Part shown: positions 1,451-5,658 of the stretch, piece after piece
How positions within the stretch are numbered: position 1 is the first letter of the stretch
Layout of the letters: each line of letters opens with the position of its first letter
Virus record (IMG/VR): IMGVR_UViG_3300045988_009858
Coordinates: 1 to 5,658 of that record
DNA: 5,658 nt
Reading direction: 5' to 3' (one strand)
Origin: a virus
Notes under the pieces: generated by a model
What the model saw: the letters and a program-made list of their open reading frames with translations, nothing else
Databases searched by the model: none
Told to the model about the DNA's origin: nothing
Translations under genes and position numbers: made by a program

Positions 1451-2491
1451 ATGGGAATCGGAACAGCAATAGGAAGTGCAGCCCTAGGAGGGCTGACAGG
1501 TGGAGTTGGAGGTCTAGTATCAGGAGCAATCGGAGGGCTAGGCTCACTAATGGGAATCACCAGGCGAAAAGAGAAAAAAGCTCGAGAAGCCGAAGAAAGA
1601 GAACACCAAAGACAACTGGAATACATGGGGCTACAAGCTCAGTATAACAAAGAGCAAGCGAGATACTCTACAGATCTAAGCAAAGAGATGTGGGACTACA
1701 CCAACTTTGAAAATCAGGTAAAACACCTGGAAGCAGCGGGGTTGAATCCAGCACTACTATACGGTAGCGGTGGCGGTGGCGGTGGAAGTGCGGCAGGTGG
1801 AGGAAGTGCAGCAGGAGTAGGACTACCAACATCGACAGGTGTAGGAATGGGCATCCAATGGGAACAAATGGAAGCTCAGAAGGAACTGGCTAAAGCAGAG
1901 GCTGCGAAAACCAACGCAGAGGCAGCTAAACTGATGACAACTGACACTGAGAACGTGAAGTCAGAAACCGAAAAGAATAAACAAGAGATCAAAGAATCCG
2001 AGAAGAGAATAGAACACCTAACCAGTCAAATACATAAGACTAATGAAGAAAGCAAAGGGATAGAATTTACCAACTATCTGAACGAGCTACGAAAGGGCAT
2101 TAAGTTACAGGGAGAAGTAAACGGAAAAACAACATGGACTAAGGGTTTTGAAGAGATTTTCAAGGGAAAAGAACTTCAAAGAATGTTAGCAGATTACGGA
2201 ATCTCACAGAAAGAATATCAAGAGGCTCACAACGATAAAGAGGTTGCAATGAGGTTATCTGAAGCTCTCGACGAGATTGCAAACGGGAAAATAGCGGTAT
2301 TCGGCAAAATGGTTGAAGAAGCGAAACAAGCCAAAAATGAAACAGCCAGGCAGAAGTGGCAATTCGAACAGGATAAGGCATTCAGCGACCTGATAAATGA
2401 ACTAGGAGGTGACGGCAAGTACGGAAAATTACTAACAGGAATAATCAGTGCAATATTCAATAAGTGGCACGGATTCGGAAAATCCAAATAA
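1451..2491 (+). CDS. VP2: VP2 minor capsid / DNA pilot protein (phiX174 H analogue), 346 aa
   Basis: Glycine-zipper hydrophobic N-terminus (MGIGTAIGSAALGGLTGGVGGLVSGAIGGLGSLMGI). The motif LEAAGLNPALLYG is typical of microvirus VP2. A poly-Gly/Ala linker (GSGGGGGGSAAGGGSAAG) follows, then a long charged heptad-like helical region (EQMEAQKELAKAEAAKTNAEAAK...), as expected for a pilot-protein coiled-coil tube. The gene order VP1-(scaffold)-VP2-VP4 fits. Confidence 0.88.
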   Translation: MGIGTAIGSAALGGLTGGVGGLVSGAIGGLGSLMGITRRKEKKAREAEEREHQRQLEYMGLQAQYNKEQARYSTDLSKEMWDYTNFENQVKHLEAAGLNPALLYGSGGGGGGSAAGGGSAAGVGLPTSTGVGMGIQWEQMEAQKELAKAEAAKTNAEAAKLMTTDTENVKSETEKNKQEIKESEKRIEHLTSQIHKTNEESKGIEFTNYLNELRKGIKLQGEVNGKTTWTKGFEEIFKGKELQRMLADYGISQKEYQEAHNDKEVAMRLSEALDEIANGKIAVFGKMVEEAKQAKNETARQKWQFEQDKAFSDLINELGGDGKYGKLLTGIISAIFNKWHGFGKSK

Positions 2492-2498
2492 TAGAATT

Positions 2499-3431
2499 AT
2501 GTGTCTATATACGAAATACATAACGAATAAAAAATACCAGCCAAATCGGAAAAATAAATTTAATGCGCCTGTCTGTGAAGACAGGCGTTTACTTTTAGTG
2601 CCGGCGAAATGCGGAAGATGTATCGAATGTCGCAAAGCGAGGAAAAGAGAATGGGTAATCAGACTGAATGAAGAGATCCGGAATCATCCTGGAAGAGCGA
2701 CCTTCTGGACGCTAACAATAAGTAACGAATCGTACGAAAAACTGAAGAGTGACAGTAAAAAAAAAGACAGAGATAGTATATGTAAACTAGCGGTCAAGAG
2801 AATGCTGGAACGAATACGCAAGAAAACGAAAAAGTCTGTCAGGCACTGGTTCATCACGGAACTAGGCGAGAATACAGGACGAATACACCTACACGGCATA
2901 TGCTGGGGAAATCCTGACTTAATAAAGGATAACTGGAAATACGGATTCGTATTTCAAGGGAATATGTGCAATGAGAAAACAGTGAACTACGTAGTGAAAT
3001 ATATGCTAAAAGAAAGCCCAATAGACCGAAACTATATAGGAATTGTACTGTGCAGCGCAGGAATAGGCAAGGGGTATGAACAAAGCTATAACAGCAAAAG
3101 AAATGCGTACAGGGAAAATAATACCAATGAATATTACAAACTACCAAATGGAATGGAACTTCCATTACCTGAATACTATCGGAAAAAAATATACAGCGAA
3201 GAAGAGCGAGAAAAACTGTGGATAGAGAAGCAGGAGAGAGGCTACAGATACATTTGTGGCGAAAAGGTATCAATAGATGATGAAGAAGAATACAACAGTA
3301 TTCTGAATTACTACCGTGAAAGAGCTAAAGAATTGTATAACGAAAACTATGACAACTGGGAGAAAGAGCGGCACAAGAAGCAACTTCAAAAACTCAAAGA
3401 ATATCAACAAGAACACAAAAGAGGCGGTTAA
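2499..3431 (+). CDS. VP4: VP4 replication initiation protein (HUH rolling-circle endonuclease, phiX174 gpA analogue), 310 aa
   Basis: ATG 2499 is in frame with track ORF 2448..3431 and 8 nt after the VP2 stop, giving the N-terminus MCLY... All three RCR motifs are present: motif 1 FWTLTI (2703-2720), motif 2 HLH in GRIHLHGICW (2886-2894), and motif 3 with paired tyrosines Y-VVK-Y in NYVVKYMLK (Tyr codons 2988-2990 and 3000-3002; compare phiX gpA YVAKY). There is also an N-terminal CGRCIECR cysteine cluster. Confidence 0.92.
   Translation: MCLYTKYITNKKYQPNRKNKFNAPVCEDRRLLLVPAKCGRCIECRKARKREWVIRLNEEIRNHPGRATFWTLTISNESYEKLKSDSKKKDRDSICKLAVKRMLERIRKKTKKSVRHWFITELGENTGRIHLHGICWGNPDLIKDNWKYGFVFQGNMCNEKTVNYVVKYMLKESPIDRNYIGIVLCSAGIGKGYEQSYNSKRNAYRENNTNEYYKLPNGMELPLPEYYRKKIYSEEEREKLWIEKQERGYRYICGEKVSIDDEEEYNSILNYYRERAKELYNENYDNWEKERHKKQLQKLKEYQQEHKRGG
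2566..2597 (+). terminator. Intragenic terminator-like hairpin inside the 5' end of VP4 (8-bp stem cgcctgtc/gacaggcg, loop tgtgaa, then tttactttta)
   Basis: Perfect inverted repeat 2566-2573 / 2580-2587 (6 of 8 G:C pairs), immediately followed by a T-rich run at 2588-2597. It spans codons 23-30 of VP4 (APVCEDRR). Confidence 0.4.
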
Positions 3432-3445
3432 TAACCGCTTTTTTT
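3423..3445 (+). terminator. Rho-independent terminator at the end of VP4
   Basis: ggcggtta a taaccgc palindrome (stem gcggt/accgc plus extensions), immediately followed by seven T (3439-3445). The VP4 stop codon TAA 3429-3431 sits in the hairpin apex. Confidence 0.8.
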
Positions 3446-3492
3446 GTGTTGATAAGTATGCAAAATCGGTTAATAAACATGTTGATAACTTG
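3427..3492 (+). repeat. Cluster 1 of phased direct repeats: GTTAATAA / GTTGATAA / GTTAATAA / GTTGATAA
   Basis: Copies start at 3427, 3448, 3469 and 3481 (spacing 21, 21, 12 bp). Longer exact matches are cggttaataa at 3425-3434 = 3467-3476 and tgttgataa at 3447-3455 = 3480-3488. An 8-bp palindrome aacatgtt (3476-3483) bridges copies 3 and 4. Confidence 0.7.
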
Positions 3493-3580
3493 TGAATAAA
3501 AAAATAACTTTTTAACACTTTATTAAGATTTGATTTATATATAGAAAAAAGATTTATATTTCAAAATTTAATAATAGAAA

Positions 3581-3666
3581 GTTATAAAAAGTTATTAACA
3601 GAGTTATGAACAAGATAAATAGCTATGTTTCAGGCTATTAACATGGTTATGAACAGTTTCAACAGG
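3581..3666 (+). repeat. Cluster 2 of iteron-like direct repeats, consensus RGYTATKAACAG, 6-7 copies
   Basis: Copies start at 3581 (gttataaaaa), 3591 (gttattaacag), 3603 (gttatgaacaag), 3622 (gctatgtttcag), 3634 (gctattaacatg) and 3646 (gttatgaacag), plus a degenerate tttcaacagg at 3657. Spacing is 10/12/19/12/12 bp. The exact 10-mer gttatgaaca occurs at 3603-3612 and 3646-3655. The 24-bp unit 3591-3614 recurs at 3634-3657 with 19/24 identity, offset 43 bp. Confidence 0.7.
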
Positions 3667-3700
3667 ATATTATTATCATATATATTTCTGTTTATATAGA

Positions 3701-3718
3701 AAATTATAAAAATTATAA
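3701..3718 (+). repeat. Exact tandem 9-mer aaattataa x2 abutting the left edge of the GC-rich island
   Basis: 3701-3709 = 3710-3718, read directly. The island begins at 3721. Confidence 0.9.
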
Positions 3719-3720
3719 TA

Positions 3721-4020
3721 AGGGCGTTACCCCTAAAGGGGTCGGGCTTTCCGGCTCAGACATATGCTTCGCATACTCGCCTCCAATCCCTAACGCAGCA
3801 GCGCATAGGATAGTACGGCTTCCATACAACATCCATGTATCAGAGAGTGAGAGCCAGATAATAATTTTTACGCGGGCAAGGTGTTAATATCGGAGGGAAG
3901 CTCGCACTCCGTGCGCCGGAATCAGGCTACATGTCACACAGCAGCACTAAGTTATCTAAGGTGCTAACGCTATCGGGGCTACGCGCCCCTATACCCCTCG
4001 TACGCAACAAAGTTGCGATT
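3721..4020 (+). other. GC-rich, hairpin-dense non-coding island of unknown function (candidate ssDNA complementary-strand origin, structured RNA, or recombination module)
   Basis: Hand count gives 157/300 G+C (52%) against 43/240 (18%) for 3481-3720. Local hairpins: 3729-3742 (acccc taaa ggggt), 3763-3775 (tatgc ttc gcata), 3903-3915 (cgcac tcc gtgcg), 3943-3965 (agcac...gtgct), 3975-3989 (ggggc tacgc gcccc), 4003-4017 (cgcaac aaa gttgcg). Longer-range complements: gcgtta 3724-3729 with taacgc 3791-3796 (or 3965-3970), and ggctc 3753-3757 with gagcc 3851-3855. There is no convincing ORF. The island lies between the terminator (3423-3445) and the promoter (4050-4086). Confidence 0.55.
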
Positions 4021-4049
4021 ATATATGCCTACGGCAATTTTTTACAAAA

Positions 4050-4086
4050 TATATTTGTTACTATCGGAAAAAATACAGTATATTTG
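4050..4086 (+). promoter_or_regulatory. Bacteroides-type promoter (-33 TTTG, -7 TAnnTTTG) driving the whole gene string
   Basis: TATATTTG at 4079-4086 matches the -7 consensus TAnnTTTG. TTTG at 4054-4057 lies 21 nt upstream as the -33 element, and is itself part of a second TATATTTG at 4050-4057. The first gene's ATG (4103) is 17 nt downstream of the -7 box. I found no other such pair in an intergenic position. Confidence 0.6.
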
Positions 4087-4102
4087 CAAAAAGCTAAAAA
4101 TT

Positions 4103-4291
4103 ATGAAAGAAAAATACGAAATCGAAATACATGATAAAACAGCAAGAGGCATATATGTATATATACATGAATCAACATCATTCTACAATGCTTTTTTACA
4201 GGCAAAAGCAATACAAAGAGTGTATGAACATAGCTGGCGGAGGAAAACAGAAATAATAGCAATTAAAAAACAAAACAATGAAAATGAATGA
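4103..4291 (+). CDS. Hypothetical small protein, 62 aa
   Basis: ATG 4103 is in frame with track ORF 4013..4291 and is the first ATG downstream of the predicted promoter. The upstream part of the track ORF runs through the promoter and the island edge. The A-rich codon usage matches the other phage genes. There are no recognisable motifs. Confidence 0.55.
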   Translation: MKEKYEIEIHDKTARGIYVYIHESTSFYNAFLQAKAIQRVYEHSWRRKTEIIAIKKQNNENE

Positions 4292-4493
4292 AAAGTACAA
4301 AAAGTTAATTCGTGAAATCACGATTGCAGTATTATCAGCTATCCTGACATGGTTAGGGGTGAGTTGTACCAACATGCTGAGCGTTCAGAAGAATGTGAAA
4401 GGAAGCAGCATGAGTACAGAAAATAAAACAGAAGGTAAAGTAAGTGCAGATAGCACAAGTATTAATTTATTTAACAAGGAGGACAAAAAATGA
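4278..4493 (+). CDS. Small membrane-anchored or lipoprotein-like protein, 71 aa
   Basis: The product has a basic N-terminus (MKMNEKYKKLIRE), a 16-residue hydrophobic stretch (ITIAVLSAILTWLGVS), Cys30 (tgt 4365-4367) in a lipobox-like LGVSC context, and a hydrophilic Ser/Thr/Lys-rich tail. The start overlaps the previous ORF by 14 nt. Confidence 0.6.
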   Translation: MKMNEKYKKLIREITIAVLSAILTWLGVSCTNMLSVQKNVKGSSMSTENKTEGKVSADSTSINLFNKEDKK

Positions 4494-4708
4494 ATGGAGA
4501 TGAATTATTCAAAATCAGACCAGTAAATGAAGAACAAAATGATTTTATAATCACAATAGGACAACACCTGGCGACAGAGCAACACTTTTCAACACGTAAA
4601 GAAGCGGAAGCATACAGAGATACACCACAATGGGATACGATTCTCGCATTTGTGGCGGAAATGTTAGAAATTCATACAGCGGTTAAACATAAAAAAGATA
4701 AAGAATGA
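4490..4708 (+). CDS. Hypothetical small acidic protein, 72 aa
   Basis: ATGA overlap with the upstream stop (ATG 4490-4492 / TGA 4491-3) and a second ATGA overlap with the VP1 start (TGA 4706-4708 / ATG 4705-4707). It is the only gene preceded by a canonical SD (AAGGAGG 4476-4482, 7-nt spacer). No motif was recognised with confidence. Confidence 0.6.
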   Translation: MNGDELFKIRPVNEEQNDFIITIGQHLATEQHFSTRKEAEAYRDTPQWDTILAFVAEMLEIHTAVKHKKDKE

Positions 4709-5658
4709 GCATATCAAAATCAATCGGGAAGAACACCCTAGGAGGTGGTAATTCCATGCAGGTCGACCTGAGAACTTACAACAGAAGTACGCACAATTTA
4801 TCATACGCCTGGCGAAGCAGCATGGGAGTAGGAACACTAGTCCCATGTATGAAATTGATAGGATTACCAGGCGATACATTTGACATTGACATAGATACTA
4901 AAGTATTAACACATCCAACAGTTGGACCGTTATTTGGGTCATATAAATTACAGATTGATATCTTCACAGCACCAATCCGATTATACAACGCAATGCTGCA
5001 TAATAATGCACTTAACGTCGGATTAGATATAAGTAAAGTAAAATTACCAAAATTAAATTATATAGGACTATATGATGATAAAATAGAGGATAGTACACAT
5101 CTAACAATGAGTAGTAGTAGTATATTTGCGTATCTAGGGTGGCGAGGTTCAACAGCAACAAAAGAACCAACTAAAACAATTAATAATGCGATACCTATAC
5201 TAGCGTATCTAGACATATTTAAAAATTACTATGCGAACAAGCAGGAAAGTAACTATTATTACCTAGTCAAGTCAACGTATGTCAACACAACATTTACAAA
5301 CAGAGCAATAACCTACGACCAAGCGGGAAAGCTAACAACAGGCGGAACGATAGAAATAGTTAACATGACACTAGAACAGTGGAATGGATCAGGCGAGGTA
5401 TACGGTACAGAAACAGAAGGAGGTTTGAAAAAATGGTTAAACAGCAAAGAAATAAACAAATATTGGACGCCTACACAAAAAGGAAGTAATATACTGTTAA
5501 CATTCAAAAGAGGGCAATACTGGATATTTGGGGACCAAGCAAGATACAAGAACAGCAGCTATATACAATCAGCAGGGTTAGATTTGCTCGACGAGCTAAG
5601 AGAAAAAATACTCAAAGCAGGCAGCACACAATTCATTGTTGCAGCGGGAACAAACAAA
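4705..5658 (+). CDS. VP1: Major capsid protein VP1, N-terminal part (runs off the window; 5560-5658 duplicates 1-99)
   Basis: My own translation of frame 1 from ATG 4705 has no stop through 5658: MSISKSIGKNTLGGGNSMQVDLRTYNRSTHNLSYAWRSSMGVGTLVPCMKLIGLPGDTFDIDIDTKVLTHPTVGPLFGSYKLQIDIFTAPIRLYNAML... The blocks RSTHNLS, G.L.P, PGDTF and GPLFGSYK.Q.D.F..PIRLY match what I recall of Alpavirinae-type VP1 N-termini. It is missing from the ORF track only because it lacks a stop within the window. Confidence 0.9.
   Translation, partial: MSISKSIGKNTLGGGNSMQVDLRTYNRSTHNLSYAWRSSMGVGTLVPCMKLIGLPGDTFDIDIDTKVLTHPTVGPLFGSYKLQIDIFTAPIRLYNAMLHNNALNVGLDISKVKLPKLNYIGLYDDKIEDSTHLTMSSSSIFAYLGWRGSTATKEPTKTINNAIPILAYLDIFKNYYANKQESNYYYLVKSTYVNTTFTNRAITYDQAGKLTTGGTIEIVNMTLEQWNGSGEVYGTETEGGLKKWLNSKEINKYWTPTQKGSNILLTFKRGQYWIFGDQARYKNSSYIQSAGLDLLDELREKILKAGSTQFIVAAGTNK
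5560..5658. repeat. 99-nt terminal redundancy (identical to 1-99) marking a circular genome of 5,559 nt
   Basis: Base-by-base comparison of tatatacaatcagcagggttagatttgctcgacgagc...gcagcgggaacaaacaaa at both ends. Confidence 0.97.

Follow-up and report, generated by a model that had tools for sequence, protein, structure and literature searches.

Genomic context of the island

The window analysed here is the whole 5,658-nt stretch of the IMG/VR virus record IMGVR_UViG_3300045988_009858, and the subject of this work is a 300-nt GC-rich island at its positions 3721 to 4020. The two ends of the window carry an exact 99-nt direct repeat (1-99 and 5560-5658), from which we conclude that it represents a complete circular microvirus genome of 5559 nt; owing to this circularity VP1 comprises approximately 625 aa and not the 658 aa obtained by naive concatenation. 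The plus strand carries all genes of the genome, and the island lies in the intergenic gap between VP4 and three small open reading frames (ORFs). Features of the genome and of the island are collected in Table 1.

An earlier note on this DNA had described an abrupt, non-coding, hairpin-packed block outside the transcription unit, and most of this description is accurate. GC content rises sharply at 3721 from 17.9% (3481-3720) to 52.3% (3721-4020) and falls to 23.7% (4021-4100), the genome average being 38.7%, and the boundary sequence quoted in the note is correct. The block is placed, as claimed, between a terminator at the end of VP4 and the promoter of the downstream genes. Judged by its sequence, the hairpin with a T-run at 3424-3446 resembles an intrinsic terminator and closes the phage transcription unit before the island is reached; the terminator scan reports this stem on the minus strand. 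The first ATG after the promoter is at 4103, and the promoter serves the small ORFs and VP1 and bounds the island on the right. The island is also non-coding, since its single ORF (3931-4134) matched no PHROGs family and the indels among homologous copies are not multiples of three. For module A, defined below, copy lengths of 69-84 nt with indels that break the frame exclude coding.

Table 1. Features of the window (positions of the 5,658-nt stretch).
Feature	Position	Strand	Basis or remark
VP1 (Phage_F)	4705 across the origin to 1023	+	Pfam
134-aa ORF	between VP1 and VP2 in the listed gene order	+	
VP2	1451-2491	+	
VP4 (REP_ORF2-G2P)	end at 3431	+	Pfam REP_ORF2-G2P
Hairpin GCGGTT/AACCGC and T-run at the VP4 stop codon	3424-3446	+	sequence
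Intergenic non-coding gap holding the island	3432-4102		
AT-rich spacer, ~18% GC, outside the island	3447-3720		repeat families D1-D9, I1-I8
Module A, 75-nt three-way junction	3723-3797	+	covariance model, 83.6 bits, E = 4e-21
Module A, P1, closing helix	3724-3729 with 3791-3796		
Module A, P2 hairpin	3730-3733 with 3738-3741		variable
Module A, P1'	3744-3746 with 3788-3790; 3748-3749 with 3785-3786		one fixed mismatch
Module A, GGC/GCC 3-bp helix	3753-3755 with 3779-3781		
Module A, asymmetric internal loop	TCAGACA 3756-3762 opposite CTC 3776-3778		invariant
Module A, P3 hairpin	3763-3767 with 3771-3775		variable
-7-like box TATGTCTG	3758-3765	-	one mismatch to the Bacteroides -7 box TAnnTTTG
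Tail of the module A cassette, GCAGCAGCGCATAGG region	3798-3810	+	comparison of close relatives
Linker: imperfect hairpin GGCTTCC...GGAAG/GAGAGCC, inner ATACA/TGTAT, then AATAATTTTT	3811-3869	+	sequence comparison
Module B	3869-4022	+	specific to the window's virus clade
Module B, closing stem	TACGCGGG 3869-3876 with CCCCTCGTA 3994-4002		
Module B, hairpin CGCAC/GTGCG	3903-3915		
Module B, conserved core	AAGGTGCTAACGCTA 3958-3972; covarying hairpin GGGGC/GCCCC 3975-3989; TATACCCC 3990-3997		
Module B, terminal hairpin CGCAAC-AAA-GTTGCG, then ATTATATAT	4003-4017		terminator-like in the terminator scan
Short GCC/GGC hairpin and T-run ending the GC-rich block	4027-4043	+	weak feature; sequence; alignment-fold columns 166-176
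Bacteroides-type duplex-DNA promoter	TTTG 4054-4057, 21 nt, TATATTTG 4079-4086	+	sequence
Three small ORFs	4103-4708	+	

The island is a mosaic of modules

BLASTN against phage records matched separate pieces of the island in different viruses, and eight close relatives (L001, L002, L109-L114) were compared to define its parts. By these comparisons the island is a mosaic of modules and not a single unit. Module A with its tail is present in the window and absent from L111, L114, L112, L110 and L002; in L111 and L114 the sequence ...TATAATG is joined directly to ATAGTACGG (window position 3810), and in all five genomes the start of the GC-rich block corresponds to window 3810. Furthermore, the copy in L113 is an internally deleted mini-version and that in L109 is rearranged. 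Hence module A is a dispensable accessory cassette. The linker that follows it occurs twice in L112. Module B is found at one position in all nine members of the clade, with 77-97% identity in the eight relatives and with compensatory changes.

Module A is a conserved three-way junction

Viral and metagenome contigs were searched for copies of module A, first with patterns and then with a covariance model, which yielded approximately 100 loci (about 100 microvirus contigs) with roughly 76 distinct sequences. The earlier note had proposed covariation as a check of the predicted structure, and the helices of module A covary strongly across copies. In 34 copies, standard pairs fill 93% of pair cells as compared with 30-46% when the partners are slid, double-sided changes occur at 8 pairs, and none of 500 shuffles reached the observed covariation score. 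The closing helix P1 appears as GCGTTA/TAACGC, GCGTC/GACGC, GGCTT/AAGCC, GAGTT/AACTC and GCATC/GATGC, while P2 and P3 are swapped wholesale between copies with pairing kept. The structure of module A is thus kept by selection. When the minus strand of module A is folded with DNA parameters, its minimum-energy structure is the one supported by covariation.

The chemistry of the pairs also bears on the nature of the folded molecule. The helices of the 76 distinct copies comprise 1070 pair cells, of which 1066 are Watson-Crick, 2 are G·T and 2 are A·C. Structured RNAs normally tolerate G·U much better than A·C; since G·U is here as rare as A·C, the helices of module A look like DNA pairing. Wobble counts as an indicator of the acting strand were considered and rejected: they are too few in module A, they point weakly to the plus strand in module B and to the opposite strand in the long hairpins of class 1 loci, and they were treated as mutation bias.

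The hairpins listed in the earlier note are therefore real in the sense that covariation supports them, but its argument from hairpin density fails. The RNA folding energy of the whole island, compared with dinucleotide shuffles, gave z = -0.31 and -1.02, and the DNA folding energies of island parts on both strands gave z from -0.2 to -1.9. As the island is GC-rich, the folding-energy test cannot decide anything. The repeated words that had been pointed out exist at the level of chance, with 14 repeated 6-mers against approximately 10 in shuffles, 18% of which reach 14; moreover, the third copy of tatcgg, counted as part of the island, is at 4062, outside it. A structured-RNA family was sought for the island and none matched: Rfam 15 with permissive thresholds gave nothing on the window or the island at E up to 10, neither the seven to eight related loci nor the plasmids gave a hit at E up to 0.1, and ARAGORN found no tRNA or tmRNA.

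Module A is shared by two microvirus lineages and conjugative plasmids

Module A occurs in two deeply divergent lineages of microviruses, with one copy per replicon. Its left boundary is sharp and always lies beside a T-rich flank (TTATTT|GGGCG), and its right boundary varies between classes. One subtype is found in long human-gut contigs of up to 145 kb, and the same subtype is present with 100% identity on the 62-kb Bacteroides uniformis conjugative plasmid pBuniCL06T06-1 (NZ_CP072237). On one strand of this plasmid the order is traM, traN, an M23 peptidase, three small ORFs, module A, a canonical promoter and then ParB/RepB, DpnD/PcfM, DUF2958 and an N6-methylase, followed later by BtgA, DUF5712 and the coupling protein (T4CP). 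In many long human-gut contigs, module A is likewise located between traN/M23 peptidase and ParB, PcfM, DUF2958 and the N6-methylase. The window and the B. uniformis plasmid thus have in common the layout of module, canonical promoter and genes. No further, weaker copies of module A were detected on the plasmid, even with the filters off.

A scan of one genome per species, representing 185,579 species, returned 12 module A matches, all of them chance matches in high-GC genomes, which argues against a chromosomal origin or an attachment site attB. The check for host identity raised in the earlier note therefore turned up relatives on plasmids and none on chromosomes.

Some longer contigs deserve separate mention. 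Contigs L119, L154, L175, L184 and L191 (13-128 kb) hold microvirus-like sets (VP1-size and Rep-size ORFs) with a class 3 module A, which could be proviruses integrated there or concatemers. In the 8-11 kb contigs L042 (1304 and 7207) and L045 (1418 and 7800) the module is present twice, as slightly different copies about 6 kb apart, and L164, of the same contig class, has two module B cores; these three are probably head-to-tail assemblies of two related genomes.

Module A keeps a fixed orientation relative to strand composition

In the first set of genomes module A was sense to the phage genes in 23 and antisense in 19, and both orientations are borne out by GenBank annotations (mar49, mar63 and bajarodmic virus 65). 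Relative to strand composition, by contrast, its orientation is fixed: in 92 microvirus-size contigs the module always lies on the A-rich strand, with no exception, and two apparent exceptions proved to be a chimeric contig and a plasmid fragment. At four-fold sites, the AT skew of the coding strand ranges from +0.37 to +0.74 (mean about +0.5) in genomes with the module in sense and from -0.21 to -0.72 in those with the module in antisense. The sense and antisense groups correspond to two deep lineages with VP1 identity of 27% at most, comprising 28 VP1 clusters at 70% identity. At least four subtypes of module A, with identical junction and P3 loop, are common to both lineages, so the cassette must have moved between them repeatedly, landing on the A-rich strand each time. 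The same orientation rule applies to the module B core, which points the same way as module A in 11 of 11 cases. Such a rule fits an element that needs one strand of an asymmetrically replicated and packaged genome, and an RNA gene gives no reason for it.

The skews of the two lineages are mirror images of each other, with AT/GC values at four-fold sites of +0.56/+0.16 in the window's lineage and -0.54/-0.10 in the other, and both lineages use Bacteroides-type promoters. Such values would be expected if a single mutational regime acted on opposite strands. The T-rich lineage resembles the viral strand of phiX174 (AT/GC -0.65/-0.11), and Chp1 is T-rich as well (AT -0.56). The AT skew of phiMH2K, at +0.31, is opposite to that of phiX174 and Chp1, and skew was therefore rejected as a general marker of the strand that is packaged.

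On pBuniCL06T06-1 the module is co-oriented with the ParB...methylase genes and with the BtgA/DUF5712/T4CP (relaxase) operon. As a rule, the relaxase operon is transferred last in conjugation. Should this apply to pBuniCL06T06-1, the complement of module A would be on the strand that is transferred and, in the sense of transcription, upstream of ParB, PcfM and the methylase, and by analogy this would be the place occupied by Frpo promoters. The Prevotella plasmids L222 and L224, each with a single module B core, show the same orientation relative to the relaxase.

Transcription signals in and around module A

The complement of module A contains a sequence that resembles the -7 box of Bacteroides promoters. 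In the 76 copies it reads TATGTTTG in 43 (a perfect box), TTTGTCTG in 13, TTTGTTTG in 11, TATGTCTG in 8 and TTTGTTCG in 1, each of these variants having one mismatch to the box. In the folded complement the box lies on the 3' arm and is mostly unpaired in the internal loop. As judged from the modelled fold, it would be in the non-template position and its polarity would send transcription out via P1 and past 3798, giving a plus-sense RNA. A -33 TTTG at proper spacing to this box was not found.

Upstream, on the module strand, a canonical -7 box (TAnnTTTG) within 150 nt is present in only 1 of 89 contexts, and the same genomes use TAnnTTTG boxes for their own genes. One candidate for an ordinary promoter 5' of module A, the TTATTTG beside GGGCG, was rejected as it misfits TAnnTTTG. 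Downstream, again on the module strand, a terminator-like hairpin with a T-run occurs within 220 nt in 26 of 91 contexts; the three controls gave 5-6 of 91, so that the enrichment is approximately five-fold. Downstream terminators together with the missing upstream promoter suggest that RNA of the module sense exits the module although no ordinary promoter precedes it. In the window the linker, from its sequence, looks like a terminator for a plus-sense RNA leaving module A; its DNA fold by itself was not significant.

The module B core has relatives in other microviruses and in Prevotella plasmids

The core of module B follows the consensus AAGGTGCTA(N)ACGCTA, a covarying GC hairpin and CTATACCCC, and is frequently trailed by the hairpin ACGCAAC-AAA-GTTGCG-ATTAT. 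Core and hairpin were found at 26 loci, including other microviruses and the small Prevotella plasmids L222-L224. The stems vary and yet pair (GGGGC, GGGAC, GGGGGC, GAGGGC, GGGAGC, GAGAGC and GGGG). The evidence for covariation of the core was taken from these stems sequence by sequence and not from the MAFFT alignment, which misaligned the core hairpins, so that its pair table understates covariation. The window core lies approximately 530 nt downstream of VP4. In L222 and L224 the core is located 190-230 nt upstream of genes for MobA/VirD2-type relaxases, on the same strand. In L223 (Prevotella melaninogenica plasmid pPME0001, 8.1 kb) there are two inverted cores (TGTCGCTTTTCGGTGCTGGTCGCTATGGGG...CCCCTATACCCC), one at 2544 on the plus strand and one at about 3775 from the end on the minus strand, both far from the mob gene; either strand of this plasmid therefore has one copy in each sense.

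As a separate observation, the hairpin CGCAAC-AAA-GTTGCG followed by ATTAT(A/T) or TATTAAT (window 4003-4026) recurs in several classes of loci and in the Prevotella plasmid L222, and in class 2 loci (for example L015 and L020) it stands directly after module A.

Taken together, module A (B. uniformis) and the module B core (Prevotella) show that both conserved modules of the island have relatives on plasmids. The carriers of both modules enter cells as single-stranded DNA (ssDNA), like the virus.

Proposed action on single-stranded DNA

With moderate confidence, we read the island as a cluster of cis-elements that act on ssDNA, in the manner of a complementary-strand origin or an ssDNA promoter, on the complement of the drawn strand; most likely it encodes neither a protein nor a free-standing RNA. 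Module A, and probably the module B core, would fold in one specific DNA strand, which appears to be the complement of the drawn strand. The analysis establishes the structure of the module, its family, its distribution, the orientation rule and the promoter and terminator context; which strand acts, which enzyme recognises it and that it serves priming is what we infer. The first hypothesis of the earlier note, a minus-strand origin acting at the level of ssDNA, is thus the one we favour, with the corrections that the island consists of separable modules, that the first of them is dispensable and that the apparent acting strand is the complement. As expected of a complementary-strand origin, the island has conserved intergenic stem-loops whose helices are supported by covariation. 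Retention across the virus clade, a further expectation, is seen for module B (nine of nine members) and not for module A.

In the mechanism we propose, the complement of module A on incoming ssDNA would fold into the three-way junction and be recognised by the host machinery. The fold would present the Bacteroides -7-like box (TAnnTTTG) pre-melted in the internal loop, and RNA polymerase would start near 3779-3785 and exit via P1, in the plus sense. The RNA might terminate at the hairpin and T-run of the linker (3811-3869), or beyond, and would prime the synthesis of the complementary strand; on plasmids it could serve also the early expression of the downstream genes.

A more specific proposal, which we put forward tentatively and regard as doubtful, is that the two gut microvirus lineages package opposite strands. 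The virion of the window's virus would then contain the non-coding T-rich strand, on which module A would serve as an ssDNA promoter of Bacteroidales, a device that conjugative plasmids would share. The mirror-image skews, the invariant orientation relative to skew and the consistent plasmid context all point this way. If the proposal is true, the first RNA made on the incoming genome both primes the complementary strand and is sense to the phage genes.

Several points weigh against an ssDNA element on the complement. The main weakness is that the window needs the non-coding strand in the virion, which is not known for any microvirus; were the coding strand packaged, as in phiX174, the window would have the supposedly inactive orientation. 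The orientation rule amounts to two deep lineages and a few transfers, so its statistical weight is modest, and phiMH2K demonstrates that strand skew does not always tell which strand is packaged. On the plasmid side, module A is known from a single plasmid family, the transferred strand was deduced from gene order, and L223 carries its two module B cores in inverted arrangement. Of the -7-like boxes, 43% are imperfect, among them TATGTCTG of the window, there is no -33 element, and the 75-nt fold is far smaller than the approximately 300-nt Frpo hairpins. Moreover, the folding energy of the island is not better than that of shuffles, and module A, missing from L111 and L114 and degraded in L109 and L113, is not essential.

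Alternative explanations

The island might instead be one or two free-standing, plus-sense structured non-coding RNAs, with module A as the 5' domain and the hairpins with T-runs as terminators. Bacteroidales mobile elements would carry these RNAs for accessory functions, for instance as decoy, regulator or anti-defence RNAs, and presence or absence among close relatives would suit such an accessory gene. The covarying fold is equally open to RNA, and the terminator-like sites enriched downstream on the module strand would find their place in this explanation, as would the few G·U pairs of module B that favour the plus strand. That some lineages have the module antisense to all their phage genes would also be compatible with an independent gene. 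Nevertheless, we consider a free-standing RNA, which was the second hypothesis of the earlier note, unlikely. Against it are the lack of an Rfam match at E up to 10, the single context in 89 with a canonical box within 150 nt upstream, the scarcity of G·U, which is as rare as A·C in the helices, and a folding energy equal to that of shuffles. An RNA gene offers no reason for an orientation that tracks strand composition without exception.

The position of the module B core relative to the relaxase genes of L222 and L224, on the same strand and in the usual place of an origin of transfer (oriT), raises another explanation. Module B, or its core with the CGCAAC-AAA-GTTGCG-ATTAT hairpin, could be the nick site of an HUH nuclease, that is, an oriT in Prevotella and a viral rolling-circle origin cut by VP4, with module A as a separate accessory. 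Read on its complement, the core is arranged like MOBQ oriTs, in which a conserved single-stranded motif comes after an inverted repeat, and the constant position of module B throughout the clade would agree with an origin. As a lead only, the hairpin with TTG(N)TATTAAT in related viruses resembles the viral-strand origin of phiX174, CAACTTGATATTAATAAC. We nevertheless judge a nick site improbable: the core is absent from most microviruses with module A (class 1 and class 3) and hence is no general origin, viruses sharing the core have very different VP4 proteins (L009 as compared with the window), and L223 has its two inverted copies far from the mob gene.

Still less probable, in our estimate, is the view of module A as a selfish miniature element mobile via ssDNA, such as an IS200/IS605-type relic or another hairpin-ended transposon, whose orientation would follow from the insertion mechanism. 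Its presence or absence among near-identical genomes, the sharp left boundary at a T-rich flank, the short terminal complementarity of P1, the spread over two virus lineages and a plasmid, and the orientation tied to one strand would all be in keeping with such an element. However, multiple copies and a transposase would be expected in the genomes of the 185,579 species, which hold no true copies, and each replicon has a single copy. The right boundary differs by class and thus defines no end, and loops that are invariant over deep divergence argue for a function of the sequence itself.

Microvirus proviruses with flanking dif-like sites are known in Bacteroidales (PMC3091885) and some module-bearing microvirus gene sets lie in contigs of 22-128 kb, but the third hypothesis of the earlier note, a host-derived phage attachment site (attP) such as a folded XerCD/dif-like substrate for lysogeny, is largely refuted and scarcely tenable, as the dif consensus has no match in the window at up to 3 mismatches, the genome scan gave no chromosomal match beyond the 12 chance matches in high-GC genomes, the module in the long contigs sits among phage genes and not at a junction, and close relatives lack it.

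Relation to known systems

The favoured ssDNA element has its nearest counterparts among the signals of plasmid leading regions. There, ssDNA promoters or single-strand initiation (ssi) sites precede methylase and anti-restriction genes and also supply primers, and several unrelated sequence classes of Frpo/ssi promoters are known from F, ColIb-P9 and pESBL (PMC11541004, PMC12672017). Module A resembles them as a folded element on DNA that enters the cell single-stranded, upstream of establishment genes (methylases) and with an orientation apparently fixed relative to the transferred strand, and early transcripts and primers may, by analogy, be proposed for both. In contrast, the known elements are hairpins of approximately 300 nt with strong folding energy that rebuild the sigma-70 -35 and -10 boxes, while module A is a 75-nt junction with a lone -7-like box (Bacteroides sigma factor) in an internal loop and forms no long hairpin rebuilding both hexamers. 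Furthermore, the B. uniformis plasmid has a conventional promoter between module A and ParB. The small three-way junction, the missing -33 element and the box imperfect in 43% of copies therefore place module A outside the Frpo class as defined.

With the complementary-strand origins of enterobacterial microviruses, namely the G4-type primase sites and the PriA assembly site of phiX174, the island has in common the cluster of intergenic stem-loops in a microvirus. Some ssi signals of plasmids are reportedly related to G4-type origins (Nomura, Masai and Arai, around 1991), and a family common to ssDNA phages and conjugative plasmids of the same hosts would be a second likeness. There is no sequence resemblance, however, the hosts belong to another phylum, and module A is dispensable in close relatives. 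In addition, the origins of G4 and phiX174 are on the coding (viral) strand, whereas the element of the island is apparently on the complement of the coding strand in the window's lineage; its sense is fixed relative to strand composition (92 of 92) and opposite relative to the genes in the two lineages.

The type A single-strand origins (ssoA) of rolling-circle plasmids are similar as cassette-like, orientation-specific, non-essential structured regions that are swapped between replicons. The primer at ssoA is short and is made by RNA polymerase. In the module B core, the invariant CGCTA has a complement (window 3963-3968, minus strand; L020, L222, L223) that reads TAGCGT/TAGCGA, which we take to be the conserved sequence 6 (CS-6) hexamer of ssoA, although a six-base match is weak and may be coincidence. 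Unlike in ssoA, where CS-6 is in a terminal loop, the hexamer here lies beside a hairpin; no site resembling recombination site B (RSB) was identified, and ssoA belongs to Firmicutes plasmids. The likeness to MOBQ oriTs consists in the short distance at which the module B core precedes the relaxase gene in two Prevotella plasmids and in the inverted repeat beside a conserved single-stranded motif on the complement; it differs in that the core is present also in viruses without a relaxase and, on a third plasmid, twice and inverted.

In full-text literature searches we came across no account of structured non-coding elements from gut microviruses, nor anything linking Bacteroidota with ssDNA promoters or ssi signals. 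A compact, sequence-defined element of 75 nt that is common to both kinds of replicon provides a concrete handle on how the very abundant gut microviruses and the Bacteroides conjugative elements turn incoming ssDNA into duplex. Module A might be used as a marker for leading regions and establishment genes in Bacteroidales plasmids and integrative and conjugative elements, and it offers a way to ask which strand gut microviruses package. Moreover, gut microviruses and conjugative plasmids exchange non-coding cassettes.

Further features of the intergenic gap and of related loci

The AT-rich spacer to the left of the island contains iteron-like direct and inverted repeats, TATTAACAGAGTTATGAACA / TATTAACATGGTTATGAACA, 43 nt apart, as well as AAGTTATAAAAAGTTATTAACA and two copies of TGTTGATAA with inverted partners. 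These repeats are kept in every close relative (L002, L109-L114). The spacer and not the island is the better candidate for binding of a protein to duplex DNA, and its repeats form a candidate binding array for Rep or a regulator, possibly a duplex-DNA origin.

Two AT-rich inverted repeats bracket parts of the gap: 3671-3687 with 4047-4063 (17 nt, 82% complementary) encloses the whole island, and 3707-3719 with 3858-3870 (13 nt, 92%) encloses module A and the linker. They could close these regions into larger ssDNA stem-loops.

In L006 (Microvirus mar63), a 55-aa coiled-coil-like ORF (MKDFEKIREQITTLEMNVLTGKLNK...) is located downstream of module A at 2705-2872; it lies on the module strand, antisense to all annotated phage genes, which is unusual in microviruses. 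In class 1 loci (for example L010, L019, L024, L031 and L039), a 22-bp hairpin is found approximately 60-130 nt after module A, just 5' of the VP4 start codon. Its arms covary, and the mismatches are mostly A·C on the coding strand, corresponding to G·T on the complement.

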